From the UHGV virus genome UHGV-0095853: 35,246 bases of DNA. One strand, given 5' to 3'. Positions within the stretch are counted from its first letter, which is position 1; each line of letters begins with the position of its first letter. Source of the DNA: a virus. Below are positions 10,069 through 35,041 of the stretch, piece by piece. The position numbers were made by a program, and so were the translations under genes. The notes under the pieces are model-generated. The model was not told the DNA's origin and did not search any database. It worked only from the letters and a program-made list of their open reading frames with translations.

Positions 10069-10088
10069 GTTACGCAGCGGAGGCAGAA

Positions 10089-10481: not shown

Positions 10482-10868
10482 ACACCTTTAACCACGGAGA
10501 TGCCGTTCCCTGCACGATAGCGGCGGGGAACGGAATTCTCCATCAGGTCACGAATTACTCCCGCCTCATGTAGTCCCACTGTTTCCCAGTATCTGTTTGT
10601 CACCAATTACGCCCCGTTCCGCCAGGGGAAGGTATGAACGAGCTTCTGCTTCGGTTGCAGCCATGACGCAGATATACAGGTGTTTTTGGCAGGAATAGAA
10701 ACGCCAGATAAATTCAGAATGAGTTGGGGTGGGGATAGTAGCGATATTGGCAGCCTCCTTTGACTAAGTTAAGGAGCTACCGCGTGAGGTTCCAATCCCG
10801 GCACCCGTTTTTCTAAGGTGCCGTAGAAATATACCCCACGATAATGCCAGGGCGCAACAGTCAGTATT

Positions 10869-18511: not shown

Positions 18512-18683
18512 TGCGTGTGGCATGTATCGGCTTGTTACCGTACCCGACTCGTTTTTGGGCTTCTGCGCTAATTGCAAAGCCACATGTCCTGATGGCTGAC
18601 AACATCATCCCGGCACCAAAGCGCCGCCATACCGGTATTGCAGCGGCACGACGAGCAGCAAAGAGACGCAGGAGAGCAAAGCG

Positions 18684-18860
18684 ATGAAAAACCGTAAGGC
18701 AAAACGACTTTTTTTACAGCGACCTGTGCGTGTGGTGGAGCTGGTTATTAGCAACCATAAGATAGCGGTACTCCATCCATTTGGTCAGGTGGCTTTTGCC
18801 GCAAAGCGTAAGCCTACTGCGTCACAGAACAGGCGGAAGAAAGGGTACGCAGTAAGATGA
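18684..18860 (+). CDS. Small basic protein (58 aa)
   Basis: Begins MKNRKAK; stop overlaps next ATG (ATGA); GGAGAG upstream. Confidence 0.35.
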   Translation: MKNRKAKRLFLQRPVRVVELVISNHKIAVLHPFGQVAFAAKRKPTASQNRRKKGYAVR

Positions 18861-19045
18861 AAAACCGTAAAGCAAAGATTCTGTTAGTTCGTAGAAACGC
18901 TCCTGGCGTCTGGCAGTGGGTGAGACTCAGCAACCGACGGATGGGGTTGATGAAATATTACGGGATGATGGATTGTGGTTTTTGCAAAAAGCCCAGCGCG
19001 GCGCAAAACCGCTGGAAAAACCATTTGCGCACTAAAGGAGAGTGA
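18857..19045 (+). CDS. Small basic protein (62 aa), partial paralogue of 18684..18860
   Basis: Begins MKNRKAK; first 20 nt nearly identical to the preceding ORF. Confidence 0.4.
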   Translation: MKNRKAKILLVRRNAPGVWQWVRLSNRRMGLMKYYGMMDCGFCKKPSAAQNRWKNHLRTKGE

Positions 19046-19046
19046 T

Positions 19047-19256
19047 ATGGCTATTGCCGCAAGTTACACCATGCATCTCTATTGTGACTGCCGCCAGTGT
19101 ACGGAAGGTGTATATCCAGTGCCAGACTTCGGTGAATATATCGGTACGTCATGGGCTGGCTGTGCAAAAGAGGCACGTAAGGATGGCTGGCGAATAAGCA
19201 AAGACAAAACACGTGCTTTTGCGCCCGGGCATAAAGTTTTGAGGATTAACAAATGA
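19047..19256 (+). CDS. Small Cys-rich protein (69 aa)
   Basis: ATG preceded by AAAGGAG; CDCRQC motif. Confidence 0.45.
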   Translation: MAIAASYTMHLYCDCRQCTEGVYPVPDFGEYIGTSWAGCAKEARKDGWRISKDKTRAFAPGHKVLRINK

Positions 19257-19924
19257 CCACTTTAACCGACAAAGAACTGATTAAAGAAATCAAAGAGCGT
19301 ATCAGCAGCCTGGACGTTCGAGACAATATTGAACGCCGGGCTTATGAAATTGCACTGGCATCGCTGGAAGCAGATCCAGTTGCTTATATTTTCAAACATC
19401 CGGCCGGGAAATTATTCTGGGCTTTAACGGATGAAAGCAATAAAGAGCAACCGGACGTTATTCCTGTTTATGCTGCCGCGCCTGCGTCGGTTGTGCCGGA
19501 TAATGCATCAGAGCCTCTTGCTTATGCTTACAAAGAGCTTACGCCTGAGATTATGCGCAACCAGGCTGCCGAATCCAATCGCGGTAATGAGTGGACCGGC
19601 AATCCTGATATTGATAACGCCATCATCATGCTCGACCGCATAGATACGCTGGAAAATTGCGATGATGACCGTATTGAGGCTGTTAAGGCTGTTTTGCGTA
19701 GACTGGCTGGCAACTCTCCGGTAACTCCGGCTGGTTGGATAAGCTGTAGTGAGCGGACGCCGAACGACGCGCAGTGGTGCGTAGTGAACACAAAATACGG
19801 GTATTACGTGCAATGCTGGTCTGAAGGTCAAGGGTGGCTTGGTGATGATATCAGCATCCCTGAATGCGATGTAATCAATTGGATGCCGCTACCGGAACCG
19901 CCGCAGGAGGTTAACCGTGGATAA
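19253..19924 (+). CDS. DUF551 domain protein
   Basis: C-terminal Trp-rich module ending INWMPLPEPP, typical of lambdoid DUF551 proteins. Confidence 0.6.
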   Translation: MTTLTDKELIKEIKERISSLDVRDNIERRAYEIALASLEADPVAYIFKHPAGKLFWALTDESNKEQPDVIPVYAAAPASVVPDNASEPLAYAYKELTPEIMRNQAAESNRGNEWTGNPDIDNAIIMLDRIDTLENCDDDRIEAVKAVLRRLAGNSPVTPAGWISCSERTPNDAQWCVVNTKYGYYVQCWSEGQGWLGDDISIPECDVINWMPLPEPPQEVNRG

Positions 19925-20198
19925 CCTGCAACTAGCCGTTAAAGGTGAATACTTCGATGCCATAATTCGTGGAGAGAAAACGGAAGAGTATCGCCTGTGT
20001 AATGACTACTGGAATAAGCGAATTATGTTCCGGGAGTATGACCGCCTGATTATCACAAAGGGATATCCGAAGCGCGACGATTCCAGCCGCAGAATTGACG
20101 TTCCGTATGAAGGATATGAAATCAAGACAATCACACATCCCCAATTCGGCGATAAACCGGTAAAGGTGTACGCGATAAAGGTGAATATCAATGGCTAA
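19917..20198 (+). CDS. ASCH/DUF3850-like small protein (tentative)
   Basis: EYFDAIIRGEKTEEYR...REYD pattern; GTG start with GCAGGAGG 8 nt upstream. Confidence 0.4.
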   Translation: MDNLQLAVKGEYFDAIIRGEKTEEYRLCNDYWNKRIMFREYDRLIITKGYPKRDDSSRRIDVPYEGYEIKTITHPQFGDKPVKVYAIKVNING

Positions 20199-20631
20199 AT
20201 TTCAAAGAGCTATTATTTTTCTGGCTATGTTATCAGCCAGTCATTTATCCCACGCGTCAGTTATTGCCGCTGGAGCGGCGGCAACAGCGACGGCAACAGC
20301 GGCGGCAACAGCAGCGACCACGGCGGCAGTAAATGCTTCTATCGCCAGCGAGCAAGCGCGGCGTGCTGCAACCAATGCTTCCGCAAACACCACCACGGTA
20401 TCAGTAACACAATCAAAACCGAATATAGGCTTTGTTACTTGCGGAAAGAGGAATAGCGAAATGGTTGGTTCTCTTGGTTGTGTAATGTGGCAAGAGGACG
20501 ATAGGCCTGAAATCCCGTGGAACTCATGGCCTGGTTACATTCTTGGTAAGAAGATACCCACCAGCTATGAAGTAAATGCTATTTCATTCGACCAATATAA
20601 CGGTGTTGCAACGGTGTATTTTCTGTATTAA
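20191..20631 (+). CDS. Exported protein with Ala/Thr-rich linker
   Basis: Signal peptide (IIFLAMLSASHLSHA) then AAATATATAAATAATTAA low-complexity tract. Confidence 0.55.
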   Translation: MAKFQRAIIFLAMLSASHLSHASVIAAGAAATATATAAATAATTAAVNASIASEQARRAATNASANTTTVSVTQSKPNIGFVTCGKRNSEMVGSLGCVMWQEDDRPEIPWNSWPGYILGKKIPTSYEVNAISFDQYNGVATVYFLY

Positions 20632-20643
20632 CACGGAGTAATT

Positions 20644-20937
20644 ATGTGGCGTGGTAATAATCATGGCAAAAGCCAGATGATACTTACCGAATATAAGCTA
20701 GACCACAAAACCAATAAATCACGCTCAGTATATTTGCTCCGGCACAATAGCCGCGTAAGAAATACCGTGCTGGAACAAAATCTGACAGTTGAAATGGATA
20801 ATTACGGGGGATTCAAGCCAGCAATTTCGCTTGATGATTTTCCTCGTGGTTTAAGCGAAAGAGAAGCCATGCTGAAATTAGCAGAATGGCTTCAGAGGTT
20901 AAGTATTGCTATTGAAGATAACTGGAGTCAACCATAA
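20644..20937 (+). CDS. Hypothetical protein (97 aa)
   Basis: ATG preceded by GGAG. Confidence 0.5.
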   Translation: MWRGNNHGKSQMILTEYKLDHKTNKSRSVYLLRHNSRVRNTVLEQNLTVEMDNYGGFKPAISLDDFPRGLSEREAMLKLAEWLQRLSIAIEDNWSQP

Positions 20938-21113
20938 TGAAAAACAGAAAGAAATTTTGGATTACTTTTTTGTTTGTATGCCTTTGCGGTTTATTTATTT
21001 TATTAGCTGGTGGTGTTAAATGGGGTACGGTGGAGTGTGGTTTTTGGAGCGGGGTTACTCTTTTCGCAGCCTGGCTTATCGCCAACTTTGAGTCAGGCGG
21101 AGGATATTGGTAA
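20937..21113 (+). CDS. Possible small membrane protein (58 aa)
   Basis: ATG overlapping upstream stop (TAATG); two hydrophobic segments; begins MKNRKK. Confidence 0.35.
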   Translation: MKNRKKFWITFLFVCLCGLFILLAGGVKWGTVECGFWSGVTLFAAWLIANFESGGGYW

Positions 21114-21192
21114 GTGGTCTTATTCCCCACTTCATAACGGATATCACGCTCGTGATAACGGATATTCCAATTTTGATAACGGATAAGGCCAA

Positions 21193-21402
21193 ATGAAGCA
21201 TTTTTTAAGGTTGGCATTTGTTCTGGCGCTATTTGCTCCTCCGGCTGCAATGGCTGGAGAACAGCAACATTGCACAAAAGAGAATGAACACCCTTTCATC
21301 GTTATTCAATGCGATGACGGAACGGTGACTGTGGTTAATGTAAGAAATGACCGTGTAGCTGTTTGCCGTAAAGGCGAACCATGCAAGGAAATAAAACTAT
21401 GA
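21193..21402 (+). CDS. Small exported Cys-containing protein (69 aa)
   Basis: Signal peptide LAFVLALFAPPAAMA; four Cys in mature part. Confidence 0.5.
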   Translation: MKHFLRLAFVLALFAPPAAMAGEQQHCTKENEHPFIVIQCDDGTVTVVNVRNDRVAVCRKGEPCKEIKL

Positions 21403-22157
21403 CAAGAATCACTAAAGAGCGTATTTCAGATATTATTTCCCGTATCGAAATGTATGGTCACGGTGCTGGATATACGGCAGATGAAGTATTGGCACTTGCC
21501 CAAATGGCTTTGGCGGCTTGCAAAGATGATAAAAAAATGAAGCTTATCGACTTGTTAGTGAAAGAGCTGCCTAAGTGCGGCGGGTGGCCTGATGGTATGA
21601 TCGATTGTCGCCTGCTCAGTGCCAATTTAATGGCGCCATGCGCGACTTTTGCTTTTGGCTCAGACCACAAAAAAGACACGTTCTTTGGGCGCAATTTTTG
21701 TTGTGAGATTGAGCTTCCAATTGGTGACCTTGATAGCGATGAATACCTGTCAGTTGTCACTCGCGAACAATACGAATCAGCTCTCATAGCGTCGCAGAAA
21801 GTCGAGTTCAATGGTGATGAACTTGAAAGTAAGACTTACAGGTTGGATTTTGGGCAATGGCTGGAACAGCAACGCGGGAAAATCGATGTGGACTGTGGTT
21901 GTGTGTCCACTGAAACATTCATGCACTGGCTGCGGGTAGCTTACGAGGCTGGCAACCATCCGGATTTTCCGGATAGTTCCCAACAATCGCCCAAGAAAAG
22001 CGTAAAAACCACTCTGGAAAGAGGCTATCTTGAGGCCGCATTAAAGATTAAGCCGGGCCATACGCTAGGCGTCATTGATGCCATGTTGGTTCATGAAATG
22101 GCGAAGGCTTTATTGCCGCTGGTGGCTGATAAAATTCCGAATAAAGCCGATATCTGA
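21399..22157 (+). CDS. Hypothetical protein (about 252 aa)
   Basis: ATG 21399 overlaps upstream stop; Cys-rich. Confidence 0.55.
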   Translation: MTRITKERISDIISRIEMYGHGAGYTADEVLALAQMALAACKDDKKMKLIDLLVKELPKCGGWPDGMIDCRLLSANLMAPCATFAFGSDHKKDTFFGRNFCCEIELPIGDLDSDEYLSVVTREQYESALIASQKVEFNGDELESKTYRLDFGQWLEQQRGKIDVDCGCVSTETFMHWLRVAYEAGNHPDFPDSSQQSPKKSVKTTLERGYLEAALKIKPGHTLGVIDAMLVHEMAKALLPLVADKIPNKADI

Positions 22158-22170
22158 TCACCATGCTAAA

Positions 22171-22199
22171 ATCCCCTCAATTCACAGAGGGGATTTTTG
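22171..22199 (+). terminator. Intrinsic terminator after gene 21399..22157
   Basis: Hairpin atcccctc-aattcaca-gaggggat followed by TTTTT. Confidence 0.55.
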
Positions 22200-22202
22200 T
22201 AT

Positions 22203-22469
22203 ATGTTGCATAGAGTTTTATGGAAAAGCGTTATTGTCGGCGCGATACTGGCTATATCTGGGTGTGCAATGGTGCAATACAACGACGGTGAAAAGGTAAG
22301 CATACAGTCAGATGGTTGGTATGGCCTGGATAGCCTGCAAAAAACCGCAGATAAAGCCTGTCAGCAATATGGGAAGTCTAAAGCAGTATATCAGCATAGC
22401 GCGAACGCTAACCCTCATCTAGCGCCCGGTTCTGGTGTTCAGAATACCATCTGGAAATGTGAGCCTTAA
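22203..22469 (+). CDS. Putative lipoprotein
   Basis: Signal peptide ending in lipobox-like ISGC; ATG at 22203. Confidence 0.5.
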
Positions 22470-22471
22470 AT

Positions 22472-22723
22472 ATGAGCGACTGGAATATTGCAGCTAAAAG
22501 TCAGGAAGAACGGGATAAGGTTAACGTTGATCTGGCTGCCAGCGGTGTGGCGTACAAAGAGCGATTGAACATACCTGTCATAGCTGAACAGGTAGCCCGC
22601 GAGCAACCAGAGAATCTGCGCACCTATTTCATGGAACGGCTACGGCACTACCGGCAGTTAAGCCTCCAGTTGCCAAAAGGGAGCGATCCGGTGTATCAGA
22701 ACGAGGATGCACCAAAAAAATAA
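22472..22723 (+). CDS. Hypothetical protein (83 aa)
   Basis: ATG 2 nt after upstream stop. Confidence 0.5.
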
Positions 22724-22808
22724 CGGCAAGATGGGGGAGAAATGTGATTAGCCCCCAGCGTGGCGCGCCTACAAACCCCGCTTTCACAAACTATGCCTTT
22801 TCAATGTA

Positions 22809-22846: not shown

Positions 22847-23236
22847 ATGGGCTTCCCTTCTCCTGCGGCGGATTATGCAGAGAGCCGCATTTCTCTTGAT
22901 CAGCAACTAATCAGACATCCTTCCGCGACCTACTTCATGCGGGCGGCAGACAGCCATCACCGTGAGGGAATATTGCAAGGTGCTTTGCTGGTGGTTGATT
23001 CCTCACTTACTCCGGTTGATGGTTCACTGCTTATATGCGCCATGGAGGGTGAATATCGCATAAAGAGATACAGGAAGTATCCGCGCCAGCACCTGGAGGA
23101 TTTAAGCACCGGGAAGAAAGAGGCGTTACCAGTGGATGACGATGGATGCACGGGCAGTAATGCTGTGTTTGGTGTGATCACTCATGTCATTAATGATGCC
23201 CGAAGTGGGGAGTTTGATTATAGACCTGTGATTTAA
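22847..23236 (+). CDS. humD: UmuD'-like protein (P1 HumD-type, begins at the position of the UmuD autocleavage site)
   Basis: MGFPSPAADYAESRISLDQQLIRHPSATYF matches UmuD residues 25 onward; Ser and Lys of the S24 dyad retained; lacks the N-terminal 24 residues. Confidence 0.8.
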   Translation: MGFPSPAADYAESRISLDQQLIRHPSATYFMRAADSHHREGILQGALLVVDSSLTPVDGSLLICAMEGEYRIKRYRKYPRQHLEDLSTGKKEALPVDDDGCTGSNAVFGVITHVINDARSGEFDYRPVI

Positions 23237-23249
23237 GGCGCATAAAGAA

Positions 23250-23277
23250 GCCCGCCAGACCTGGCGGGCTTTTTGTT
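23250..23277. terminator. Bidirectional intrinsic terminator between convergent humD and the terminase-paralogue operon
   Basis: Stem gcccgccag / ctggcgggc followed by TTTTTGTT. Confidence 0.65.
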
Positions 23278-23281
23278 GATA

Positions 23282-24376
23282 TCATTCAATGATTTTTTCG
23301 GCTGTCAGCCAGCTAATTTCGTGCCTGTCTTTCGGCGGTTTTAGCATGTGAGCATATTCAGCGACATGCTCCCACGGAATTGTTTTTGCCCACTCAACGA
23401 TAGCATTGTGATCTGCAGTGAAGAGTGGAATAGTGTGCGATTTCAACCATTCTAATGTCGTGACGCCATGTTTTTTGGCGTGGTGCTGCGCATGATGCCG
23501 GGCTATCACTCGTAATGGCATTGTCCATTCACTACCATCAGGCATCGAAAAGCGCATTGTCTTCGGCATATCTGATTCAAGAACAGCCTCCCTAATACCA
23601 GGGAACTCACCAAGAATCATACGACGATAGTCATCACTATTTCGCCCGCCATACCTTTCGGCAAAATGATCAAGATATTCTTGGGTAATAAATGGTGAAT
23701 CCTCCGCACTCAGCTTAATGGCTTTATATACACCACTCGGATTATCTTCAGCTAAAGCACGTCCATGATGTGAATCATAAAAAAAGCCTATTTCCTCTGG
23801 TGACGGAATTGAAGTGAGCAATATGCGTGAATCACCACTAGTCATGCTTGCCCACACAATGCTGTATGCCCGATCGCTGATATGTGCGGAATCCACAATA
23901 ATGAATAAAAGATGGTCGGCGTAGTGACCTGCAATGCTATCTTCATAGTTAAGGCGGTAGTTACAAAAGCACATTCCCCAAAATTCATTGAACATCAGAC
24001 CGCTATCACCGACCTTAAAATACTCAATGATAAAAGGTTGTTTTTTCAGCAATGCCTCCCAACATTGCCACACATATGCAACAATTCCTCTTTTGCAAAC
24101 ATTTGATTTTGGATAAACAATTACTGTCCGGGAATCAGGATACATAATCGTATAAAGGGTACTAATAACAGCAAGCACTTGCGGTCGTCCGATCCCATAC
24201 GGAGTGGTGACAGTAGCTTTTGCATTATTGGGCTGTATAGCTTCAACAATTTGTTGTTGCTGGTGGCTTAAATCAATATCAAACAATTCTTTTGCTGCCA
24301 GTACCCAATTGTCTTTATATTTCTCCACCAGCGACAGCCAGCGCGGATCTTTATAAATATTGCTCTTAGTCGCCAT
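23282..24376 (-). CDS. Terminase large-subunit (PacB) paralogue with degenerate Walker A and B motifs, lacking the C-terminal nuclease region
   Basis: Collinear with the N-terminal two-thirds of PacB at 29676..31184 (DPRW, SHQQQ, FYDSHH, DNP.G, SPF.T, YGGR); Walker A TSGHGTGKSS replaced by TTPYGIGRPQ; Walker B LILDEA replaced by IIVDSA; ATG 24376. Confidence 0.65.
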   Translation of the reverse strand: MATKSNIYKDPRWLSLVEKYKDNWVLAAKELFDIDLSHQQQQIVEAIQPNNAKATVTTPYGIGRPQVLAVISTLYTIMYPDSRTVIVYPKSNVCKRGIVAYVWQCWEALLKKQPFIIEYFKVGDSGLMFNEFWGMCFCNYRLNYEDSIAGHYADHLLFIIVDSAHISDRAYSIVWASMTSGDSRILLTSIPSPEEIGFFYDSHHGRALAEDNPSGVYKAIKLSAEDSPFITQEYLDHFAERYGGRNSDDYRRMILGEFPGIREAVLESDMPKTMRFSMPDGSEWTMPLRVIARHHAQHHAKKHGVTTLEWLKSHTIPLFTADHNAIVEWAKTIPWEHVAEYAHMLKPPKDRHEISWLTAEKIIE

Positions 24377-25133
24377 CTGCCACTTCCTTAACTTCTTCTT
24401 TGGCCTGTTCTGCAATCGCCGCACGGCATTTCGCCCTGGCTGTAGCGATTGCTTCAGCTCGCACATCGTCTGGAATCGTTGACGTGATATACATATCCAG
24501 TTCTTCGGCACGGAATACTGTTTGGTCCAGATATTCGCGTAGCATCCAGGTAAATTCGAAATCACACGCGATAATCTCTGCGCTACCTTCTGCACCATTT
24601 GGGAAATGAATAAATGCCTGTTTAGCCAAACCGATAACACGACATGCGGTTGCCAAAACAGCGACAACCAGGTTTACATTTTCACACGCTACGGGCTGAT
24701 TAACGCCGGAGATTACTCCATTTAACTGTCGGTTATATGGAAGGTAGTTTGAGATGCGTTCTACGCGCCATGTGCCAGTCAGGCTGCCATTTTTAAAGAT
24801 AATTGGTGTAACGGATAGCCCAAGCTCGCGTATAAGTCGTTGCGCTATAGCAGGATCATTAAACAGGTCTAATGCTACACATTCGAAAGACTGCGCAAGG
24901 GCAAACAGTTCTTCCAGAGAGTAGTCTTTGCCCCTGGCGGTGATGTAACGACGAACGCCGCTGTCTGCATCACTCCATATAGCTACGCCATGCTCTTCAT
25001 TCAGCTCTTCATTAAAGCCGAGATACGTCATGATAGTGCGTTCAATCGTGTCAAACGGCAGTGACATGTCGGCGTTAACAGCCACCAGCAGGCCATTACG
25101 CAAGCGGTATTGAATTGTTTTAGTGCTTTCCAT
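24366..25133 (-). CDS. Hypothetical protein (255 aa)
   Basis: ATG with GGAG upstream; overlaps downstream gene by 11 nt. Confidence 0.55.
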   Translation of the reverse strand: MESTKTIQYRLRNGLLVAVNADMSLPFDTIERTIMTYLGFNEELNEEHGVAIWSDADSGVRRYITARGKDYSLEELFALAQSFECVALDLFNDPAIAQRLIRELGLSVTPIIFKNGSLTGTWRVERISNYLPYNRQLNGVISGVNQPVACENVNLVVAVLATACRVIGLAKQAFIHFPNGAEGSAEIIACDFEFTWMLREYLDQTVFRAEELDMYITSTIPDDVRAEAIATARAKCRAAIAEQAKEEVKEVADGD

Positions 25134-25139: not shown

Positions 25140-25802
25140 TCACTCCACAACAAACCAGTCACAGGCCAGCAGGTCGCCAACTGAAGGCACCCACGGAACA
25201 ACTACACCTTGTGCATTTTTTAAGGCGAAATAAGCACCATACGGAACGAGGTCGCCGGGGAAATATCCCTTAATGGCTTCCATTCGTGCCGGGTACTGTC
25301 CTTCAGGAACCAGCCAGCAGAATTGGTTTTCGCCGTTCCACCCGCGTCGGGCAACTTTCTTGCCATCCTTCAGCCACATCAGCGCGTCAGAAAAGTCGGC
25401 TGCTTCAAGGTCGATTTCTTCTTGTAGAGTAGCGATACCGCCAGCAGAAATAGTTACGTCCCTGGCTGTAATGAATGTCACCCCATTGTGACCTTCAATG
25501 CTGAGCGATACCCCATTTTCGGAGGCGTCGTTAACCCGGCTATAGCATTTTTCAAATGCTTTCTCTGGCACATAGACCAGATAACCATTTTCAGCAGTGA
25601 CGAGATATCCTCCTATTTGCGGTCGGAACTTTTCCAAGAACACACCATCAACACGAAGCGTCATTCCTTTTGGCTCCACGACTTCGATGCTGCCAAAAAT
25701 GGGCGCATAAGCTTTGCCGACAATAACAATATCTTTGATTTTCGATGCCCGAATGATGCTGTGGCATTTGTATTTGGGGAACACCTGAAAAGTGCTGGCC
25801 AT
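25140..25802 (-). CDS. Protein with C-terminal DUF2829-like (Tad2-like) domain and an unknown N-terminal domain
   Basis: C-terminus ALMWLKDGKKVARRGWNG ... VVPWVPSVGDLLACDW matches the DUF2829 pattern; GAGGAAGG before ATG. Confidence 0.55.
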   Translation of the reverse strand: MASTFQVFPKYKCHSIIRASKIKDIVIVGKAYAPIFGSIEVVEPKGMTLRVDGVFLEKFRPQIGGYLVTAENGYLVYVPEKAFEKCYSRVNDASENGVSLSIEGHNGVTFITARDVTISAGGIATLQEEIDLEAADFSDALMWLKDGKKVARRGWNGENQFCWLVPEGQYPARMEAIKGYFPGDLVPYGAYFALKNAQGVVVPWVPSVGDLLACDWFVVE

Positions 25803-25816
25803 AATCCTTCCTCTAC

Positions 25817-26311
25817 TTAAAACTTTGCGTACTGAAGCGGTGTACGCTTGATTTCAACGCGGCCTTCCGATGTGCTACCAAAGCCACCAGCACCACGCTC
25901 CGTTTCGTTGAGTTCCTCAACCTCGACTAGTGAGACTTGTTCAACACGCTCAAAAATTCCTTGCATGACAGCCATTCCAGGCTTGAGACAAACGCCTTCC
26001 CCGCCGGGATCAGTAATCAGTTTTGCCATGATTTCGCCGCGATAATCGGAGTCGATAATTCCTACGCAGTTAGCCAGGCGAGTATGTTTTTTGCAGCCCA
26101 ATCCTGATCGCGGATAGAGTTTCAGACACCAGCCTGGCGGGATCTCCATAGCCAGTCCGGTATACACCCACCAGCTTGAGGAAATTGCACCATTGCTATC
26201 GACGCATGGTTTTATTTCAACAGCCTCAAAATCCATCGCCGCCGATCCGGAGGTGGCATAAGCTGGAAGTTTTGCTGCCGGATGTAGGCGTTTCACTTTT
26301 ACGTAAATCAT
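25817..26311 (-). CDS. dut: dUTP diphosphatase (dUTPase)
   Basis: AYATSGSAAMD, PRSGLG, GIIDSDYRGEI, ERGAGGFGSTS motifs. Confidence 0.85.
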   Translation of the reverse strand: MIYVKVKRLHPAAKLPAYATSGSAAMDFEAVEIKPCVDSNGAISSSWWVYTGLAMEIPPGWCLKLYPRSGLGCKKHTRLANCVGIIDSDYRGEIMAKLITDPGGEGVCLKPGMAVMQGIFERVEQVSLVEVEELNETERGAGGFGSTSEGRVEIKRTPLQYAKF

Positions 26312-26784
26312 TGTTTTTTAGCTCTCTGCGTGAAGGTGTAAACCCGACGTTTGATATGTGGAACGGTAGGAACAGGAAGACAGGAACTTTCAATAACTCC
26401 TTGCTCCTCCAGCGATCGCACCGCCCGCAAGAACTGCGACGTGTCGCCGCCAAACTGGCGGGCATAGGTGCTGCCGTTATGAAGTATTTGAGCTATTACC
26501 CGAGCTTTTGTCTGGCTGTCACGATATGCGAATAGCCGCACGGCCTCTTCTGGCGCAATCGCTAACTGATAGCCTTTCCCGGCACGGTGTCGAATGAATC
26601 CATGCGCCAGTAGGTTTTTGAGTTCGTTACGAGTGCGAACAGATCCGTAATCCAGGAAGTGTGGATTGATAACGACTGGCTTAAACCATTCCGTAGGTGC
26701 TTTAGCTAATAGAGCTAACAGCTTCCCGGATAATTCTGGATAGGAAGACGGGTAACAATTCAGAGATGGGTAATAAGTTTTCAC
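26308..26784 (-). CDS. Hypothetical protein, possible winged-helix DNA-binding protein
   Basis: GTG start overlapping upstream stop; two wHTH-like segments. Confidence 0.45.
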   Translation of the reverse strand: MKTYYPSLNCYPSSYPELSGKLLALLAKAPTEWFKPVVINPHFLDYGSVRTRNELKNLLAHGFIRHRAGKGYQLAIAPEEAVRLFAYRDSQTKARVIAQILHNGSTYARQFGGDTSQFLRAVRSLEEQGVIESSCLPVPTVPHIKRRVYTFTQRAKKQ

Positions 26785-27125
26785 CGACGCCCCCTTGCAG
26801 GATATCGACCGGCATTAGTATCCGGTGCAATAAAGCCGGTAGTGGGGCGAGTGAAAGCGAGATTAATCTTCTCGACCATAGTGCGATAATTTTCCTGATA
26901 GTGGGCCAGGAGTTTTTCGGCGGCAATGATGGTTACTTTCCGGACGTAGCTTTCTGCTTCCTCCAGATTTCGCCAGTTTTTTTCGAGGGTAAACACAGGG
27001 ACGGCCTCAAGCCCGGTCATGATGCCGAACACAACGACAGCATGACTGTTCTTAACACCAGCGGCGAAGGTTACGGTGTAACCATCCACCTTGAAGCGTC
27101 TTGATTCCGTGATTTGACTCTGCAA
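26781..27125 (-). CDS. Hypothetical protein (114 aa)
   Basis: TTG start with AGGAGG 6 nt upstream; first gene after the operator at 27180-27196. Confidence 0.45.
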   Translation of the reverse strand: MQSQITESRRFKVDGYTVTFAAGVKNSHAVVVFGIMTGLEAVPVFTLEKNWRNLEEAESYVRKVTIIAAEKLLAHYQENYRTMVEKINLAFTRPTTGFIAPDTNAGRYPARGRR

Positions 27126-27179
27126 AGCACCCTCCTAAATAGGCGAGGGTACTTTACAGCAAAGGCGTTAATCTAAAAA

Positions 27180-27196
27180 GATGTGTTAGAAATTTA
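27180..27196. promoter_or_regulatory. Single operator-like site GATGTGTTAGAAATTTA between the recombinase stop and the dut operon
   Basis: Matches the recurrent TGTGTTAGAAA core. Confidence 0.4.
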
Positions 27197-27198
27197 AT

Positions 27199-28227
27199 TT
27201 ACGAATCCATCAGGCGGCTATTAGCCCCCACAGACACGCCGCCACGGCGAAGATACCGCATAAGTGTTTCCGGTTTCTTCCAGGTTCCTTCCTGCATGAT
27301 CTCCACCATAGACACCTGCTTTTCAGCCATATCGATAGCGGCCCCGACACGAGCACTATGCCCGGTCCACGTCCGGTATCTCCCTTTGTTTGGCGTGGCA
27401 TCTCTTTTATTCAGCAACACCCAGGCGTCGCTGAATATTTTCTCCATTGCAGGTGCAGTAAGGGGAGTTGTCGTAATCCTGGCCTTATTGCTACGGTGTA
27501 TCGGCGGGAACAGCACCGCGTCAGGATGTTCACGAAGCCCGGAAACATCCAGCCAGTCATTCAGCACTGCGGTAGTGCGACGGGAAAGCACCTTATCAAG
27601 CCCGGCGGCGGTCGTTATTGTCTTCGTGTGTGAAATATGTAGCGTGACAGTGTCACCTGTTTGGTCCAGATCTCCTACACGAATACGCGAGATTTCAGAC
27701 ATTCGCATCAGCGTATTGTATGCAACGAAGAGGAAAGCCCGGTTACGCAGGTCCACCAGCCGTTCTGACCTGGACAACAGGACGTCGAGCAGTTTCAGAT
27801 CGTCCCACCGCAGCGGTATAGCCTGGCCTGTTCGTTCGCCTTTTTCCGTTGCCGCTTCGCGCCGAATGCGCCGCATAGCCAGAGAAATACTTTTATCATC
27901 CGAAAGTGGCGGAAGGCCACAATGCGAAAGCAGCATGTTAAGCATGGCGTAGTGCTTATCAATGGTGGTCGAAGCCAGATCAGCATCATGCAGCTGAAGA
28001 AAATACTCGCGGGCCATCTCTGGTGAGATCGGGAACCAGGCGAGCTGGCGAGCGTGGCACCATCGCGCCCAGGAGTGAAACACTAACCGGAGATCGCGCA
28101 AAGTATTCGGCGCGTAAGCCCCCTGGTCATTCATGAACCGCATAAAGTTTTCTGCGGCCTCCTGGTACTCTTTGCCAATGTTGCGCAGAAAACCACCGGA
28201 GCTGCCAGAGATAATTAATTCACTCAT
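27199..28227 (-). CDS. dre: Cre/Dre-family tyrosine site-specific recombinase
   Basis: Collinear with P1 Cre (about 40 percent identity by eye); catalytic R (YNTLMRMSEISRIRV), H-x-x-R (GHSARVG), W and Y (TWKKPETLMRY) conserved; adjacent rox-like site. Confidence 0.85.
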   Translation of the reverse strand: MSELIISGSSGGFLRNIGKEYQEAAENFMRFMNDQGAYAPNTLRDLRLVFHSWARWCHARQLAWFPISPEMAREYFLQLHDADLASTTIDKHYAMLNMLLSHCGLPPLSDDKSISLAMRRIRREAATEKGERTGQAIPLRWDDLKLLDVLLSRSERLVDLRNRAFLFVAYNTLMRMSEISRIRVGDLDQTGDTVTLHISHTKTITTAAGLDKVLSRRTTAVLNDWLDVSGLREHPDAVLFPPIHRSNKARITTTPLTAPAMEKIFSDAWVLLNKRDATPNKGRYRTWTGHSARVGAAIDMAEKQVSMVEIMQEGTWKKPETLMRYLRRGGVSVGANSRLMDS

Positions 28228-28379
28228 GAAACTATTTAACCTCTATATACAGATGACGCTACGCGAAAAATATAAAAATGACAGGGTAGCTATAAGTTAA
28301 TTTTCAAAATTCAAGCCTTTGATTCGAGGCACGTATTTTTAGTGATGTCAACACTGATCATCTACCCATGATTATAGTC

Positions 28380-28411
28380 TAACTTTAAATAATACTAATT
28401 ATCTAAAGTTA
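28380..28411. other. rox/lox-like recombination site: 14-bp inverted repeats around a 4-bp spacer
   Basis: TAACTTTAAATAAT-ACTA-ATTATCTAAAGTTA; arms differ at one position; about 150 bp upstream of the recombinase start; resembles published rox as recalled and shares the TAACTT core of loxP arms. Confidence 0.6.
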
Positions 28412-28581
28412 GAAACTTAGGAATTTTTTTCCTTTCCGCGTAGATGGGCAATGCATTGCTGGCGTGGGCTTTAAGTTATGCCTGGCAGTTTTTAAGCAGA
28501 ATTTTCTAAATTGGATGATAAAAAAATGCATCTTGATCCTTTACTCACCCTGTTATTCGGCATAGATTTGTCATAGTAATT

Positions 28582-28598
28582 TTATGTTAGAAAACTAA
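28582..28598 (+). promoter_or_regulatory. Operator-like site TTATGTTAGAAAACTAA about 25 nt upstream of gene 28613
   Basis: Near-identical to the site at 11355-11371. Confidence 0.4.
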
Positions 28599-28612
28599 AT
28601 CGAGTAGGAATA

Positions 28613-29650
28613 ATGAGTAAGAAGTCGATCGAGAAAGAGTACAAACGGTTCCTGCAAACCGCTGAACGGTGGAAAGAGCTGGTGGTCGCAAACTCTGTTT
28701 TCCATGATACCAGTTATGCCGGCGAGGAATTCCGCCATGTTGCACTAACACATGATCAGAATGTGCTAGAAGAAGCTGAAAAGTGCCTCACAGAATGGAA
28801 AGCCTTTGTTGACTTGTGCCGTAACGCTGACGGCAAAGCGTCTAACATTGTTGAGTCTGTATATTCTCCGATCCCATTCATTATCGAGGACACAAATCAA
28901 AGCACGCATATTGTTGTGCAAAGCGCGACCACCACCCGCTCATTTACGCGCGAAAATCTGCTCAAAAAATATGATGCAATTATAAAGAAAAGCCTGAAAA
29001 ACAAGATATTTTCGCAGATTGTTGGTGCGCTTGAAGAAGAGCGCCGTTTTTTCGCATCAGAACCTGAAGGGGAAGTTTACCGGGCGCGCAAAGATGGATA
29101 CACAGATGTAGTGCTTACAACAAACATTGAAGGCAGCAATGCTCTGTCACGATTCAGGGTAGGCGCACACGGAGCCTTAGTGTTCGCAAAACTTCCTAAC
29201 ACCACAGTGCCCGTTGTTAATAATGTCGGCGAACGTCGCAGCATTACTATTTATTCTGGGGTTGAGTCGATACCTTGCGGCCTGCTTGGTGACTTTAGTC
29301 TCTATCGCGTTCGCGATCTGGAGAAACACCAACCAAGCTATGTTGCGAAGTCATACATCTTGCGAAACATCGACATCCGCAATGAGAGCTTAAAGAACAA
29401 ATCAGCCAAAATGCTTGAGGAAGCCGATCCGGCTATTCGCCATATCATTGAGCGTAAAATACAGACAGCACGCGAAGCGATGGCGCGACTGAATAAAATG
29501 GATCTGGAGTTGTTAGACGTAATGATGACATCCGGAGATGACCTGACAGGCATAAAACTGACAGACGCGCGGAAAAGATACGGTAAAACCATAGAAGAAC
29601 GTTACGGGTTCACTTTCTCCCAAACACAGCACGCCGCTAAACTCTGGTAA
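28613..29650 (+). CDS. Hypothetical protein (345 aa) at the c1-equivalent position; positional candidate for the immunity repressor
   Basis: Convergent with pacB and divergent from the recombinase, as c1 is in P1; operator-like site directly upstream; no sequence-level confirmation. Confidence 0.5.
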   Translation: MSKKSIEKEYKRFLQTAERWKELVVANSVFHDTSYAGEEFRHVALTHDQNVLEEAEKCLTEWKAFVDLCRNADGKASNIVESVYSPIPFIIEDTNQSTHIVVQSATTTRSFTRENLLKKYDAIIKKSLKNKIFSQIVGALEEERRFFASEPEGEVYRARKDGYTDVVLTTNIEGSNALSRFRVGAHGALVFAKLPNTTVPVVNNVGERRSITIYSGVESIPCGLLGDFSLYRVRDLEKHQPSYVAKSYILRNIDIRNESLKNKSAKMLEEADPAIRHIIERKIQTAREAMARLNKMDLELLDVMMTSGDDLTGIKLTDARKRYGKTIEERYGFTFSQTQHAAKLW

Positions 29651-29654
29651 TCAC

Positions 29655-29683
29655 AAGCCCCGCATTGCCGGGGCTTTATATAT
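29655..29683 (+). terminator. Terminator-like hairpin after gene 28613..29650
   Basis: Stem aagccccg / cggggctt with loop cattgc, then TATATAT. Confidence 0.45.
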
Positions 29684-31184
29684 CCAGATCTGGCATTTCC
29701 ACATCTGCAAGAACCTGATCGCGGAAGGTAGCCATTTCAGCGCCGATATCTTCATTAGCAGGAACATAGTCCACCAGCATTGTAAAGCAGTAGGTATCCC
29801 ATCGGTCAGGTGATTTGATGTTCAGCTTTTGCCGCATGTGCTCCTTGCGCATCATCGCCATCTTCCCTTCTTCATTAAGTAAAAAGGGGATTTTTGACGC
29901 TTGCTCTGCCGTTTTAGGGTCACTGTCTATTCGCATACGACCTGACTTTATGGCATCACGAGCCATAATATTTGCGTAGGCACGCTGGTTAACAAAACGC
30001 TCCTTGTCTTTGTTCGAAAACATGGGTTTCCCCCACCGAATCCGTACCGGATTAGCCCCACGGCGCACCAGCTGCGCACAGGTATCTGAACCAAAACCGT
30101 CTGCGTCAACCGCGATTGTAATATTCGGGTATTTATCCGGCGTGCATTCGTTGTATATAAAGTCAGCAAAAGCCAGCGGGTCCATAGTCCCTGGCATTTC
30201 CATTACCTTAAAGTTAACAACACGCCGCTTTTCCCGGTGACCAGACACTTTACAGATATTAAGAACTGACTTGTCTCGCCCGTTACCAACGTCAGCAGTA
30301 GCCACCCATCCCCAGTTTTTCTCCAACAACACCTTGCGCCGCGCAGCGCGATCGCATTCATCACGACCAAGCAAATAGCCGTTAATCTCCCGAGGAAACT
30401 GACCAAGAACCTTGACCATGTACTCAATAGAATCGCGCCCGCCATATTCCAGGAGTTTCTGCCTGATGAATTGTGGTGTGACGAACGGTGATTCTTCTGA
30501 GTTAAGAACAATTGCTGTCCAGATCCCTTTCGGGTTGTCTGGGGTTTTAGCTTGAGAATGGTGCGAATCGTAGAAATAACCACTTGGCCTTGTTGGCTGG
30601 GATAGCATCAACATTCGGTTATCTTCTTCAGTCAGAGCGCCAGTCATTACGCCGATCGCTTTATCAGATATACCTGATGCTTCATCCAGAATTAGAAGCA
30701 AATGTGCCGCGTGCTCCCCCGCCAGAGCTTCTTCGTTACCGAGTCGATAGCCTTTGCAGAGAACTTCCCAGATCCCCTTTCGAGAGCGTTCATAAAACAT
30801 GGTGTCAGACAGGACAAAATAGGTCTGTAACCACCCATGACGCTTAACGGCATTCGCCCAATACTGTTTAACGTATTTGAATACACCTGTCTTAACCTGA
30901 CCTATTTTGTTAGCAACAATGATGACACGGGCATCGGGGAACAGAATCAAATAAATCAGCAACAACATAGCCGTTAGCGACGATTTCCCTGTACCGTGAC
31001 CAGAGGTAACAGTGGTTCTGCTCCCTTTTTGCTGTACGGACTGGATAATCTCCTGCTGCTGGTGGGAGGGAAACATCCCGAATATATCAACAACAGCCTG
31101 GGTAAAGTTGTAGCGGTATTTGATTACCATATCGCGCCAGCGTGGATCGCTGGTGACGCATTTAATCTTGCGCCCACCAGCCAT
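29676..31184 (-). CDS. pacB: Terminase large subunit (PacB-like)
   Basis: Walker A TSGHGTGKSS, Walker B LLLILDEA; 502 aa; directly downstream of the small-subunit gene with 1-nt overlap. Confidence 0.8.
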   Translation of the reverse strand: MAGGRKIKCVTSDPRWRDMVIKYRYNFTQAVVDIFGMFPSHQQQEIIQSVQQKGSRTTVTSGHGTGKSSLTAMLLLIYLILFPDARVIIVANKIGQVKTGVFKYVKQYWANAVKRHGWLQTYFVLSDTMFYERSRKGIWEVLCKGYRLGNEEALAGEHAAHLLLILDEASGISDKAIGVMTGALTEEDNRMLMLSQPTRPSGYFYDSHHSQAKTPDNPKGIWTAIVLNSEESPFVTPQFIRQKLLEYGGRDSIEYMVKVLGQFPREINGYLLGRDECDRAARRKVLLEKNWGWVATADVGNGRDKSVLNICKVSGHREKRRVVNFKVMEMPGTMDPLAFADFIYNECTPDKYPNITIAVDADGFGSDTCAQLVRRGANPVRIRWGKPMFSNKDKERFVNQRAYANIMARDAIKSGRMRIDSDPKTAEQASKIPFLLNEEGKMAMMRKEHMRQKLNIKSPDRWDTYCFTMLVDYVPANEDIGAEMATFRDQVLADVEMPDLDI

Positions 31185-32548
31185 TAGTCATCCTCCGGCG
31201 GTTCTATCGCAATATCATCATCTCCGGCGTCATACCCTGCATCTGATGCATCATAATCACCGTAAATTTCAGCCGTTGCCGAAGGGTCAATGTCCAACTC
31301 TTCATCGTTGGCCTCGAATTCCCCAGCCTTACGCTCGCCATTGTGGTCGTAATCTCCGCACCCCAGATCTTCAACAATGGTTGCCACATCCGCCCGGCGC
31401 TCTGCCAGCCATTGCGGATGGTTAGCCTGAAGCGATGCAAACTCCTTCGCTTCTTTGTCCAGCTGTTCATCATCAACATCATTGATGTCAGAAACTGGAG
31501 GTTCGAGAAGAGTGATAGCTTTCGCCGCGCGCGCCGCGAGGATAGCCGGGACACTGACACCCTGACGCTCGATGTATTCAGCAACACCGATATCGTCCAG
31601 CTCCTCGCGCTCACGCATACGTATAGCGGCGGCGATAACTCTGGCTGCGCGTGCGTCAGCGCCAATGCGATATTCAATCTCTTTGCCACGCTGTTCGGCC
31701 TGTAGGCGTGCTAATTCGAGTTTTTCTCTGGCCTCGGCCTCTCTGAATGCTTGCTGGCGAGCACCCTGACGAAGTTTTTCATCACCCTGTCGCAGCTTTT
31801 GTTCGGACTGATATATCGCTGCCAACCTACTGATAAAATCGTTCATGTAGTAGGCCGCGTCACTGATTAGACCGAGAAGTCGCTGCCCAGGGTGCATTCC
31901 TTCTGGCTGTTCATCACCCAGGGCGTCTATCTCCGCCTGTAGGCGTTCGGCCTCCTGATCAACAATGCTTTGGTACTGAAGTGCGCGTTCTTGCGCCATT
32001 TGAATTGCTAACCGCAGGTGCTCTTCTGCGCCGTTCTTCATCATGTCGCGAGCCACACTCGTAGTGGGCAACGTGGCACGCTGCACAGCACCGCCAGGGA
32101 TCATTGCTGAAGATCCCTCGATTTTTGAGGCGCATTTATCTTCGGTGGGGATCATTTTCGCCATTTTTTCGCGCAATGATCTCCTGACAGATTCTTTTAT
32201 CTCATTGTTATTATTGTCGTTATTTTTATGATCCGAAGTTTTCTTTCTCGGCATGCTCCGGAAAGAACTTCCGCTCTGTGAATTGTCAGTTTCTGTAAAT
32301 TTTGTTGTTTCTGTACCCTCTTCTGGCCTTTTTTTTGCTCTTCCTGCCCGTTTTTTTTCAGGTGATTTGGTGCTTTTTTTTGTAGTCTTCACCTGCGACC
32401 GCACCTCATTTTTTTTCATATTGAGATGCTTTCTGGCGGTATTGAAGCTAAGGTCGTGTTGCTCGCAGTATTCCTTTACGGTGATCCCTTTTTCTTCACG
32501 CAACGCTATAAATTTGGCGCGGTGCTCTTCCCAATTAACAAGGCTCAT
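31184..32548 (-). CDS. pacA: Terminase small subunit (PacA-like)
   Basis: N-terminal HTH-like segment (ITVKEYCEQHDLSFNTARKHL); position upstream of pacB; contains GATC-hexamer cluster; long acidic C-terminus. Confidence 0.7.
   Translation of the reverse strand: MSLVNWEEHRAKFIALREEKGITVKEYCEQHDLSFNTARKHLNMKKNEVRSQVKTTKKSTKSPEKKRAGRAKKRPEEGTETTKFTETDNSQSGSSFRSMPRKKTSDHKNNDNNNNEIKESVRRSLREKMAKMIPTEDKCASKIEGSSAMIPGGAVQRATLPTTSVARDMMKNGAEEHLRLAIQMAQERALQYQSIVDQEAERLQAEIDALGDEQPEGMHPGQRLLGLISDAAYYMNDFISRLAAIYQSEQKLRQGDEKLRQGARQQAFREAEAREKLELARLQAEQRGKEIEYRIGADARAARVIAAAIRMREREELDDIGVAEYIERQGVSVPAILAARAAKAITLLEPPVSDINDVDDEQLDKEAKEFASLQANHPQWLAERRADVATIVEDLGCGDYDHNGERKAGEFEANDEELDIDPSATAEIYGDYDASDAGYDAGDDDIAIEPPEDD
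32099..32233. other. Candidate pac (packaging initiation) site: five GATC-containing hexamers within 135 bp inside pacA
   Basis: GATC at 32099, 32112, 32150, 32178, 32230 with AT-rich tracts between; about 0.5 expected by chance. Confidence 0.4.
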
Positions 32549-32937
32549 AAAGCAACACCACGCTTTTTAACTGCGGCATTCCACAGCTTATTAGTCATGT
32601 CCACCAGCTTGCGCTGCTCTTGTCGCGCCAGTTCTGCAGACTTCCGGCTACAGTTTTTAACCAGCAAACTGCCGTATTCAGGGGTGCGCCCGCGCACCTT
32701 GAACTGATATCCGTTCAGGCCATGCAACCAGTATTTCCGTGGGTAAACACGATCATCAAGCTCACAAATAGCTCGGCTTGACCGCACAAAATGCCGAATG
32801 ATGTTGGTTACACTTACGCGTGAAACATGAAGGTGAGGATATTTTTCTTTAGCTAGAGTGGTAATTTCGGTGACTGTCAGATAGCAGTCAGCCCTAATCA
32901 TGATATCCGCAATTTCTGCGCTGCTGATATGCTCCAT
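32545..32937 (-). CDS. lpa: Lpa-like late promoter activator (positional call)
   Basis: 130-aa protein immediately upstream of pacA with ATGA overlap, as lpa is in P1; operator pair upstream; GGGGGA before ATG. Confidence 0.4.
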   Translation of the reverse strand: MEHISSAEIADIMIRADCYLTVTEITTLAKEKYPHLHVSRVSVTNIIRHFVRSSRAICELDDRVYPRKYWLHGLNGYQFKVRGRTPEYGSLLVKNCSRKSAELARQEQRKLVDMTNKLWNAAVKKRGVAL

Positions 32938-33010
32938 TAATCCCCCGGGCAGGAAATGACCGAGGGGATGATAATGAGAATGTTATTTCTGTATAGACTG
33001 GCAAAAAGTT

Positions 33011-33055
33011 TGTTATATTAGAAAATTAATTCCATTCATCTAACACTACCAGCGA
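33011..33055. promoter_or_regulatory. Inverted operator pair (TTAGA-N16-TCTAAC) upstream of the lpa-like gene
   Basis: ATTAGAAAATTAA at 33015-33028 and TCTAACAC at 33039-33046. Confidence 0.4.
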
Positions 33056-33438
33056 GATAAGCGAACGACGTGTTTTACCTTAGCGATCCACTTACCACGT
33101 GAGTTATTAATTACGGCCTGCGCCACCTTTAAGCTGACTTCAAAATCAGCCTTACGACCATCAGAATCCACCAGCGTTGCACCGTCTATTTCCGGCAGGC
33201 TTAAATAATCCTGTTCTACCTCTAATGGCATTGACGGCTCTCTGAATGGTGTCAATTGCCGAGCTTTCCAGATAAAGCGAACTCTCAATCCCCTATAAGC
33301 CATTACCATGTAGCCTGTTATCGTGCTCTTATGGCCTGCATCAGTACGCGCAGCATTACACGATACAATCTTACAGGTGACGATATTCCACTCCACATTG
33401 GAGACTTCGTGAATGCTTAATTTTGTTGTCTCGTACAT
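33046..33438 (-). CDS. Hypothetical protein (130 aa)
   Basis: ATG overlapping upstream stop. Confidence 0.5.
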   Translation of the reverse strand: MYETTKLSIHEVSNVEWNIVTCKIVSCNAARTDAGHKSTITGYMVMAYRGLRVRFIWKARQLTPFREPSMPLEVEQDYLSLPEIDGATLVDSDGRKADFEVSLKVAQAVINNSRGKWIAKVKHVVRLSRW

Positions 33439-34013
33439 CAGAATGCCTCCCAGTCAGTTGCGATAATATCCACGCCAGTTGCGAACCAGTCTGTCTGCGC
33501 CTGTAAATCCCCATTCATCATTACCAGGCGAGGCATAACCATCACATCGCACCCTTCCACAATATCGAATGCCTCTTCCGGCAAGAATTCGAAGAGCTTT
33601 TCTTTGCTGCCAATGCTGCCACGGAACATCGATAAATAGCTCCCTTTAGGCCATGATGCCCGGCGGGCATCCAGCCCCTTCATCATCCAGAACATGGCGG
33701 CAGAAAAATTGATGTTCTTTTTGGCGATGAAAACATTATTGGCTTCTGTTTGCTTCAGAAACTTAATTAGCCTTGCCATCGACTCGGATAACGCTACGTA
33801 TGGCTCATGATTGGCTGCGGACACGCTCACACCATGTAATCCAACACTGACTACCGTCATATCGCCGCTTTGAGCGGTTTCAATGTTGACACCTTTGCGA
33901 ACTAACGAGGCATAAAGTTCCTCTCGCTTTTGTGTCCAGCGTTCCCGCTGACCGATGAAGTCACTCAATATGAGATCTGCTTCTGCATACGCGTTATCGT
34001 TCGCCGTTAACAT
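33438..34013 (-). CDS. Hypothetical protein (191 aa), possibly with a divergent DUF2829-like C-terminal region
   Basis: FSAAMFWMMKGLDARRASWPKGSY ... DWFATGVDIIATDW loosely follows the DUF2829 Trp pattern. Confidence 0.45.
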   Translation of the reverse strand: MLTANDNAYAEADLILSDFIGQRERWTQKREELYASLVRKGVNIETAQSGDMTVVSVGLHGVSVSAANHEPYVALSESMARLIKFLKQTEANNVFIAKKNINFSAAMFWMMKGLDARRASWPKGSYLSMFRGSIGSKEKLFEFLPEEAFDIVEGCDVMVMPRLVMMNGDLQAQTDWFATGVDIIATDWEAF

Positions 34014-34466
34014 AACGTCTCCTTTTTACACGCGCGACCATCCCTCGGTTAAACCGATAGAGATGTCGAAACTTCGTATTAATTAAGGGTTACAGCCTGA
34101 GCGGCTATATGATGAATTGAAAGGAGTTGTGGCGGTGGTGCCTCCACCTGCCAGGTTAGCCACTCCTGGCGACGTCACTTATCAGAACGTAGTGAATGAA
34201 AATGGCTTCGTCACGAGCGCATAGCCGCAATTACCACAACGGAAACGGCGCTCACGCTAATTAAACGCCTTTTCCTGTTGTGCGCCGTACTCTTCCGGCT
34301 GTCACACCGAATCGCCAGGATGGTGAGTCCTCGGTCCGACGATATGAACGGGGCTTGCACATTCCGGCTACCTGGTTTGTTGCCTGAGCTAGGGGAAAAG
34401 GTAACCCCTTTAACGTCACCAGACCGCTAACGACGCATGTGCCTTACGCCGTGTTACAACCAAATA

Positions 34467-34542
34467 TGGTGGCCCCTACCGGACTTGAACCGGTGACCGT
34501 GCGATTATGAGTCGCCAGCTCTAACCACTGAGCTAAAGGGCC
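34467..34542 (-). tRNA. tRNA with CAU anticodon, closest to tRNA-Ile2 (ileX/ileY type, lysidine-modified)
   Basis: GGCCCTTTAGCTCAGTGGTTAGAGCTGGCGACTCATAATCGCACGGTCACCGGTTCAAGTCCGGTAGGGGCCACCA; about 10 differences from E. coli ileX as recalled. Confidence 0.8.
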
Positions 34543-34551
34543 AGATTACTG

Positions 34552-34680
34552 TTAATTCCGCTTACGCTTTTTGCCAGAACCGCGTAAGGCTTTTGCCGCT
34601 TGCTCGACCCCATATGCAACCACCAGCAGAAATAAAAATGTCCAACCAGGGTTCTTATCGGCAAAGGCCCAAAAATCCAT
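34552..34680 (-). CDS. Possible small membrane protein (42 aa)
   Basis: MDFWAFADKNPGWTFLFLLVVAYGVEQAAKALRGSGKKRKRN; one hydrophobic helix then basic tail; weak RBS. Confidence 0.3.
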   Translation of the reverse strand: MDFWAFADKNPGWTFLFLLVVAYGVEQAAKALRGSGKKRKRN

Positions 34681-34954
34681 CACTTGCAGCTACCTTTTAA
34701 GACAAAACGCCATTGCTGTTAGATTGCGGTGCCGGGTGCCTCCCGGTGACGTTAACCAGTTAACAATTAACGCCGGGATGTTTGACTTAACTATTGAGGA
34801 AAATTGTTTTAACTGTTCCGCGTGCGCTTAGCCGCATTCACCGCAATGGTAAGAGCACTTGGCTGGCTGGGCGGCGATGACGCCTGTACGCATTTGGTGA
34901 TCCGGTTCTGCTTCCGGCATTCGCTTAATTAGCCAAATACTCTTAACGTTGCGC

Positions 34955-35041
34955 TGGCGGAGAGTAATGGAATCGAACCATCATCGCTTGCGCAATGGGA
35001 CGGTTTTCAAGACCGCTTGAGCACCATGCTCCCTACTCTCC
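34955..35041 (-). tRNA. tRNA-like gene, class II (long variable arm), apparent anticodon UGA (Ser), atypical D-arm
   Basis: 7-bp acceptor stem GGAGAGT/ACTCTCC, T-loop TTCGATT, anticodon loop CTTGAAA, 3' GCCA. Confidence 0.45.

Follow-up and report, generated by a model that had tools for sequence, protein, structure and literature searches.

The stretch of viral DNA analysed here (UHGV virus genome UHGV-0095853; 35,246 nucleotides, hereafter the window) very probably carries the Dre/rox recombination module of a D6-like phage-plasmid, that is, a P1-type plasmid prophage of Escherichia coli and its relatives, in the form of natural alleles: a Dre recombinase with a single substitution (V114I) and a rox site with the spacer ACTA for GCCA and a T>C change in the right arm. 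The Dre/rox system of phage D6, reportedly introduced by Sauer and McDermott in 2004, has been a standard genome-engineering system since that year. The window thus holds an already known system, an ordinary allele of an established tool and not a new recombinase/site pair.

The recombinase and its genomic setting

The features of the locus, in order along the window, are as follows.

25817-26311, minus strand: dut; dUTPase Pfam match, gene order as in AY753669 and MF356679
26308-26784, minus strand: orf3 homologue; order as in the same two records
26781-27125, minus strand: orf2 homologue; order as in the same two records
27199-28227, minus strand: dre, encoding a Cre-type tyrosine recombinase (Dre with V114I); 341/342 match to AAV84949
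28228-28379, minus strand: dre upstream region, the presumed dre promoter region; ~94% identical to D6
28380-28411, no strand assigned: rox allele (left arm 28380-28393, spacer ACTA 28394-28397, right arm 28398-28411); three differences from D6 rox
28412-28612, plus strand: intergenic region between rox and c1; strong divergence from D6 immediately right of the site
28613-29650, plus strand: homologue of the c1 prophage repressor gene, named after the D6 annotation; product 310/345 (90%) identical to D6 C1
29676-31184, minus strand: homologue of pacB, terminase large subunit; synteny and about 89% DNA identity to D6 pacB
31184-32548, minus strand: homologue of pacA, terminase subunit; collinear with D6 orf3/pacA

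The original prediction, made from the letters of the sequence, was of a Cre-family recombinase that keeps the catalytic residues at roughly 40 percent identity, with alignment to Dre and Cre proposed as the check. Both alignments bear it out. The dre open reading frame starts with ATG and encodes 342 amino acids, and BLASTP against Dre of phage D6 (AAV84949, from record AY753669) gives 99.7% identity, V114I being the only residue change; against Cre, 131/317 aligned residues are identical (41.3%). All seven members of the catalytic set (R175, E178, K202, H290, R293, W316 and Y325) are present, at the positions that Chuang et al. give for Dre (PMC4777119). The product also matches the Pfam family Phage_integrase (PF00589; 62.6 bits against a cutoff of 27.1 bits), so that it has both the catalytic residues and the domain of a Cre-type tyrosine recombinase. 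All matches to solved structures are to Cre or Cre-derived proteins (best E ~7e-69, residues 22-341), and no Dre structure was found among these PDB sequence matches. Placed from the alignment alone, V114 of Dre corresponds to Cre V113; the residues credited with telling loxP and rox apart are others (K43, R259 and G263; PMC10250229), and the change from V to I is conservative. Judged by its sequence, the window recombinase is phage D6 Dre itself with this one conservative change.

The genes follow one another as in D6 (dut-orf3-orf2-dre-rox-c1-pacB-pacA; AY753669, MF356679), where dre and rox are annotated at matching places. The locus DNA is 95.5-96% identical to phage D6, and collinearity with D6 extends over the whole window and across the rox origin, interrupted by several blocks that are inserted or replaced. 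In this phage-plasmid of the D6/P1 type, rox separates c1 from dre and lies a short way upstream of the latter, and the block downstream of dre (25817-27125; dut, orf3 and orf2) has about 97% DNA identity to D6. A search of the local Pfam copy with the c1 product returned no match, and the identity of c1 therefore rests on the 90% match to D6 C1 together with the precomputed family PF27008 (Phage_P7_repressor_C1) recorded for the identical c1 gene of a metagenome scaffold (L060). For the pacB product, Terminase_6N scores 21.9 bits, just under the 22-bit Pfam cutoff.

The module is carried by 144 PLSDB plasmids (Escherichia, Salmonella and Shigella) and by 126/5426 complete E. coli genomes, in which it sits almost always on a plasmid of ~90 kb; D6-like plasmid prophages have already been described (PMC6799933). 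A human-gut metagenome scaffold of 35.6 kb (ERZ28599465, L060) matches the window at 100% over 7 kb and is probably its source; contig ERZ917816 (L067) likewise matches at 100% but may share a sample with the scaffold (same-project labels).

Cre/loxP of phage P1 belongs to the same fold family, with aligned catalytic residues, and its site likewise has the recombinase gene on one side and the c1/pac region on the other in a P1-type plasmid prophage; loxP differs in having a 13-8-13 layout and another sequence. Dre and Cre do not cross-react (PMC4777119; PMC12331466).

Several observations were made elsewhere in the window. The gene at 25140-25802 (minus strand) encodes a 220-aa protein, the C-terminal part of which matches the Pfam family Tad2-like (Thoeris anti-defence 2-like domain; 80 bits); as the D6 orf114 at this place is shorter (~146 aa), the window protein has an extra N-terminal part. 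At 34955-35041 (minus strand), ARAGORN calls a tRNA with a long variable arm and anticodon UGA (Ser), for which Rfam tRNA-Sec scores 46.6 bits, just under its cutoff of 47; the homologous tRNA-Ser is annotated on the opposite strand in the D6 GenBank record. A tRNA-Met (CAU) lies in a block without counterpart in the compared D6 region, with a match nearby to the STnc100 small RNA of Rfam (47 bits, exactly the gathering score); this tRNA-Met and STnc100 pair occupies 34467-34542 and 34725-34845, both on the minus strand. In blastn against the compared D6 region, no match was found for 9503-10625, 17426-18993, 19737-22750 and 23229-24392. Among the proteins of the blocks unmatched in D6 are two Ead/Ea22-like proteins (17394-18026 and 18023-18511), a DUF551 protein (19253-19924) and the products of several open reading frames without a Pfam match, including a possible one of 461 aa (23282-24667, minus strand).

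The rox allele and exchange at the site

The site reads TAACTTTAAATAAT-ACTA-ATTATCTAAAGTTA, that is, 32 bp in a 14-4-14 arrangement, and lies 152 bp upstream of the dre start, in agreement with the prediction of such a site some 150 bp upstream; the distance is the same in D6 and in about 60 relatives. The prediction had counted about three differences from D6 rox, and there are exactly three with respect to the rox annotated in GenBank record AY753669 (TAACTTTAAATAATGCCAATTATTTAAAGTTA, that is, TAACTTTAAATAAT-GCCA-ATTATTTAAAGTTA), which served as our reference: 28394 G>A, 28396 C>T and 28403 T>C (29/32 identical). The left arm equals that of D6 rox and the right arm matches it at 13/14 positions. 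The two arms are complementary to each other at 13/14, with C at 28403 in the right arm, and a repeat finder stretches them to 16 nt at 94%. The spacer changes fall at positions 3 and 5 of the 8-bp central region, positions 2 and 7 being wild type, and the arm change falls at position 6 of the right arm counted from the spacer (position 8 from the dyad). When the whole 35 kb window was searched for rox arms with a free spacer and ≤3 mismatches, one place only was found, against 0 in 100 shuffles; the site is therefore real and not a chance match. The ACTA spacer is asymmetric (its reverse complement is TAGT), and so the directionality of the site is kept. Taken together, the window shares with D6 Dre/rox the site layout, the spacing and the gene context, and differs from it at V114, the GCCA spacer, the right-arm T and a c1 side of ~89-90% identity.

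Aligned from the start of dre to the far end of rox, the window and D6 differ at 13 of 184 columns. A simple consensus scan of the 152-bp dre upstream region detected no sigma-70-like promoter, and the dre promoter is therefore placed by position only. A GATC Dam site (28356-28359, within CACTGATCATC) lies in this region, ~20 bp left of rox. The P1 cre promoter is methylation-sensitive, and dre might, by analogy, be regulated by methylation much as P1 cre is. A 21-nt inverted repeat surrounds rox (28259-28279 and 28423-28443, 81% complementary); as its right arm lies in a region not conserved with D6, we treat it as probably due to chance.

On the basis of homology with Cre/loxP and published work on Dre, two Dre monomers would bind the two 14-bp arms of a site, two rox sites would synapse as a tetramer, Tyr325 would cut at the borders between arm and spacer, and strands would exchange across the central crossover region via a Holliday intermediate. 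In phage P1, Cre/lox circularises infecting DNA and resolves plasmid dimers. By analogy with P1 biology, Dre/rox would circularise incoming terminally redundant phage DNA and would resolve dimers of the plasmid prophage, allowing the copies to segregate.

Resemblance to D6 changes abruptly at the site. At 97% identity, the blastn alignment to D6 reaches 28393, where the left arm ends, breaks off and restarts at 28502 at 89%; the ~100 bp to the right of rox are unalignable with D6, and the alignment includes a 9-bp indel. Identity to D6 is about 97% on the dre side (25800-28393) but about 89-90% on the c1/pac side (28502-34682), and the protein products differ likewise (Dre 99.7% versus C1 90% identical to their D6 counterparts). 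Across 60 loci, the main type of left flank is paired about equally with two unrelated types of right flank, the window belonging to right-flank cluster 1 and D6 to cluster 2. The drop in identity at rox and the pairing of one left type with two right types therefore mark rox as a boundary between modules. In the same 60 loci, the T/C polymorphism of the arm goes with the right flank (that is, with the c1-side module). The C arm moves with the c1-side module, and ACTA is an alternative spacer allele that is also found beside Dre homologues of ~90% identity.

The spacer itself varies more than its surroundings. For pairs of loci with ≤12/1181 differences on the dre side, the spacer has 0.047 differences per site versus 0.005 outside the site (about nine times as many). 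The two-base swap between GCCA and ACTA occurs on at least three near-identical backgrounds: between the window and L062, L063 and L068 (0 differences in 1181 nt), between L045 and L053 (2 differences) and between L038 and L029 (5 differences). In the comparison of L062 with the window, 5/7029 bases differ, and two of these are the spacer changes. Recurrence of an identical double mutation is unlikely. Dre-mediated fusion and resolution of co-resident plasmids would leave heteroduplex in the crossover region only, and would thereby give the pattern that is seen. From these comparisons, natural exchange by Dre seems to lie behind the recurrent spacer swap and the mosaic boundary at rox; the swap could also stem from a very short tract of homologous conversion, because the arms are identical in candidate donor and recipient. 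More tentatively, and at rather less than even chance, the two natural spacer alleles, swapped as a unit between near-identical D6-like plasmids, may be the trace left when Dre fuses and resolves co-resident elements, or when strand exchange between them is reversed, with ACTA perhaps a ready-made, naturally validated rox variant that behaves, in part or in full, as heterotypic to the canonical site (roxP). What remains of value in the locus is descriptive: the dimorphic spacer and the sharp boundary at rox would be natural evidence that Dre-mediated exchange shapes D6-like genomes.

Activity and compatibility with roxP

All rox spacer mutants tested so far recombine with themselves (PMC4777119; PMC12331466). 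[quoted passage not shown] Given this published tolerance of spacer and half-site changes, and the persistence of the allele in intact plasmids, we predict that Dre recombines the window site.

Compatibility with roxP is harder to predict, as the published rules conflict. It is conceivable, if somewhat doubtful, that ACTA is a natural heterotypic rox, which would recombine with itself but not, or poorly, with GCCA rox, would keep co-resident D6-like plasmids unfused and could be used as an orthogonal rox. In Bacillus subtilis, two unlike rox sites recombined only if one side of their 8-bp spacer region had a continuous stretch of 4 or more identical bp (PMC12331466), and rox (ATGCCAAT) and the window site (ATACTAAT) have neither half in common; both spacer changes lie inside the presumed 6-bp crossover region, and exchange by Cre is blocked or stalled by spacer mismatches in the crossover region (summarized in PMC4777119). 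By contrast, a library randomised at these same central 4 bp recombined at ~0.9 with wild-type roxP in E. coli, and sites became incompatible only when positions 2 and 7, each of them the first base of an arm, were altered (both findings from PMC4777119); the window site is wild type at these two positions. The rule drawn from the central-4-bp library and that drawn from 4-bp flank homology thus point in opposite directions, and the recurrence of the swap on near-identical backgrounds is most easily explained if the two alleles meet and exchange, which speaks against incompatibility.

The direct genome-engineering value that had been claimed for the locus therefore shrinks to little: the protein is Dre, and heterotypic rox sites have already been engineered. 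These sites (rox7, rox8, rox12, rox61 and rox85; Chuang et al. 2016, PMC4777119) retain arm recognition and have an altered central region that works with unmodified Dre; they are changed at positions 2 and 7 and are incompatible with roxP, whereas the window site is natural and changed in its central region at positions 3 and 5 only. Even if it proved incompatible with roxP, ACTA would be a rox spacer variant that adds one more member to an existing heterotypic set, not a new system.

Natural alleles of the site and their relation to Dre

We surveyed IMG/VR and a metagenome collection with a pattern in which the arms were fixed except for one free base and the spacer was left free. This yielded 53 new loci, or 54 sites when the D6 reference is counted, distributed over the alleles GCCA with T arm (33), GCCA with C arm (14), ACTA with T arm (3), GCTA (3) and CCCC (1). 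The arms were constant beside Dre homologues of 70% to 100% identity, a constancy that is partly ascertained, because the search pattern itself allowed only one arm position to vary. Three unrelated metagenome contigs (L038, L046 and L053) have the ACTA spacer, beside Dre homologues of ~90% identity, and so do L071-L073; GCTA adjoins a Dre homologue of 70% identity. The spacer of rox is therefore dimorphic in nature (GCCA and ACTA), with GCTA and CCCC as rare forms.

Related systems with Dre homologues of ~90% identity are found on plasmids of E. coli, Salmonella and Shigella (for example, NZ_CP101916.1 and NZ_CP026808.1). The exact 32-bp site of the window is present in the complete E. coli plasmids NZ_CP101916.1 and NZ_CP137706.1, 152 bp upstream of a Dre homologue of 89.5% identity and within unrelated flanks; in NZ_CP101916.1, the recombinase is identical to Dre at 306/342 positions and the flanks are unrelated on both sides. 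Plasmids of Shigella dysenteriae combine the ACTA spacer and C right arm of the window with one left-arm change (A>G at left-arm position 3). As the changes recur in other plasmids and contigs, we consider the spacer and arm changes to be standing polymorphisms. Neither component is unique to the window: NCBI already lists the exact protein as WP_343475931.1 (one of the 845 members of a cluster at 90% identity), and the exact site is in the two E. coli plasmids.

These occurrences bear on the reading that the window site is a decaying, non-functional rox, or that its spacer changes stem from assembly or sequencing error. In its favour, the spacer changes are private with respect to the nearest plasmids (99.1-99.6% identical), and both contigs that match the window at 100% may stem from a single sample. 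However, the same 32 bp in two independent complete plasmids lead us to reject an artefact in the spacer, the ACTA spacer recurs in the three unrelated contigs, and both arms and an intact dre open reading frame are kept along with an asymmetric spacer that preserves directionality; we therefore regard decay or error as very improbable.

Even less can be said for co-evolution of V114I Dre and the variant site into a new heterospecific recombinase/site pair (as in Vika/vox, Nigri/nox, Panto/pox and the YR series), which draws on the fact that protein and site both differ from the D6 reference and is effectively refuted by the alleles found beside one and the same protein. We compared the sites of contigs that encode exactly V114I Dre: two have the ACTA/C-arm site (L060 and L067), six have GCCA with the C arm (L062-L066 and L068) and one has canonical rox with GCCA and the T arm (L061). 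Conversely, unchanged D6 Dre adjoins the C-arm variant in L057, L058, L044, L055, L011 and L033, the 32-bp site is the same beside the 89.5%-identical Dre homologues, which carry V114, and the nearest complete plasmids all have the GCCA spacer. One protein with three site alleles means that protein and site do not co-vary; in addition, V114 lies outside the discriminating residues. Of the two possibilities left standing by the original prediction, Dre itself (341/342) or a new heterospecific pair, only the former holds, and the three base changes are standing rox polymorphisms, not adaptations to an altered enzyme.

One of the sites surveyed adjoins a damaged gene: in the Shigella dysenteriae plasmid CP026821.1 (L072), the Dre homologue seems frameshifted, its ungapped translation fitting Dre over only about half of the length, and the intact site here may accompany a pseudogene.
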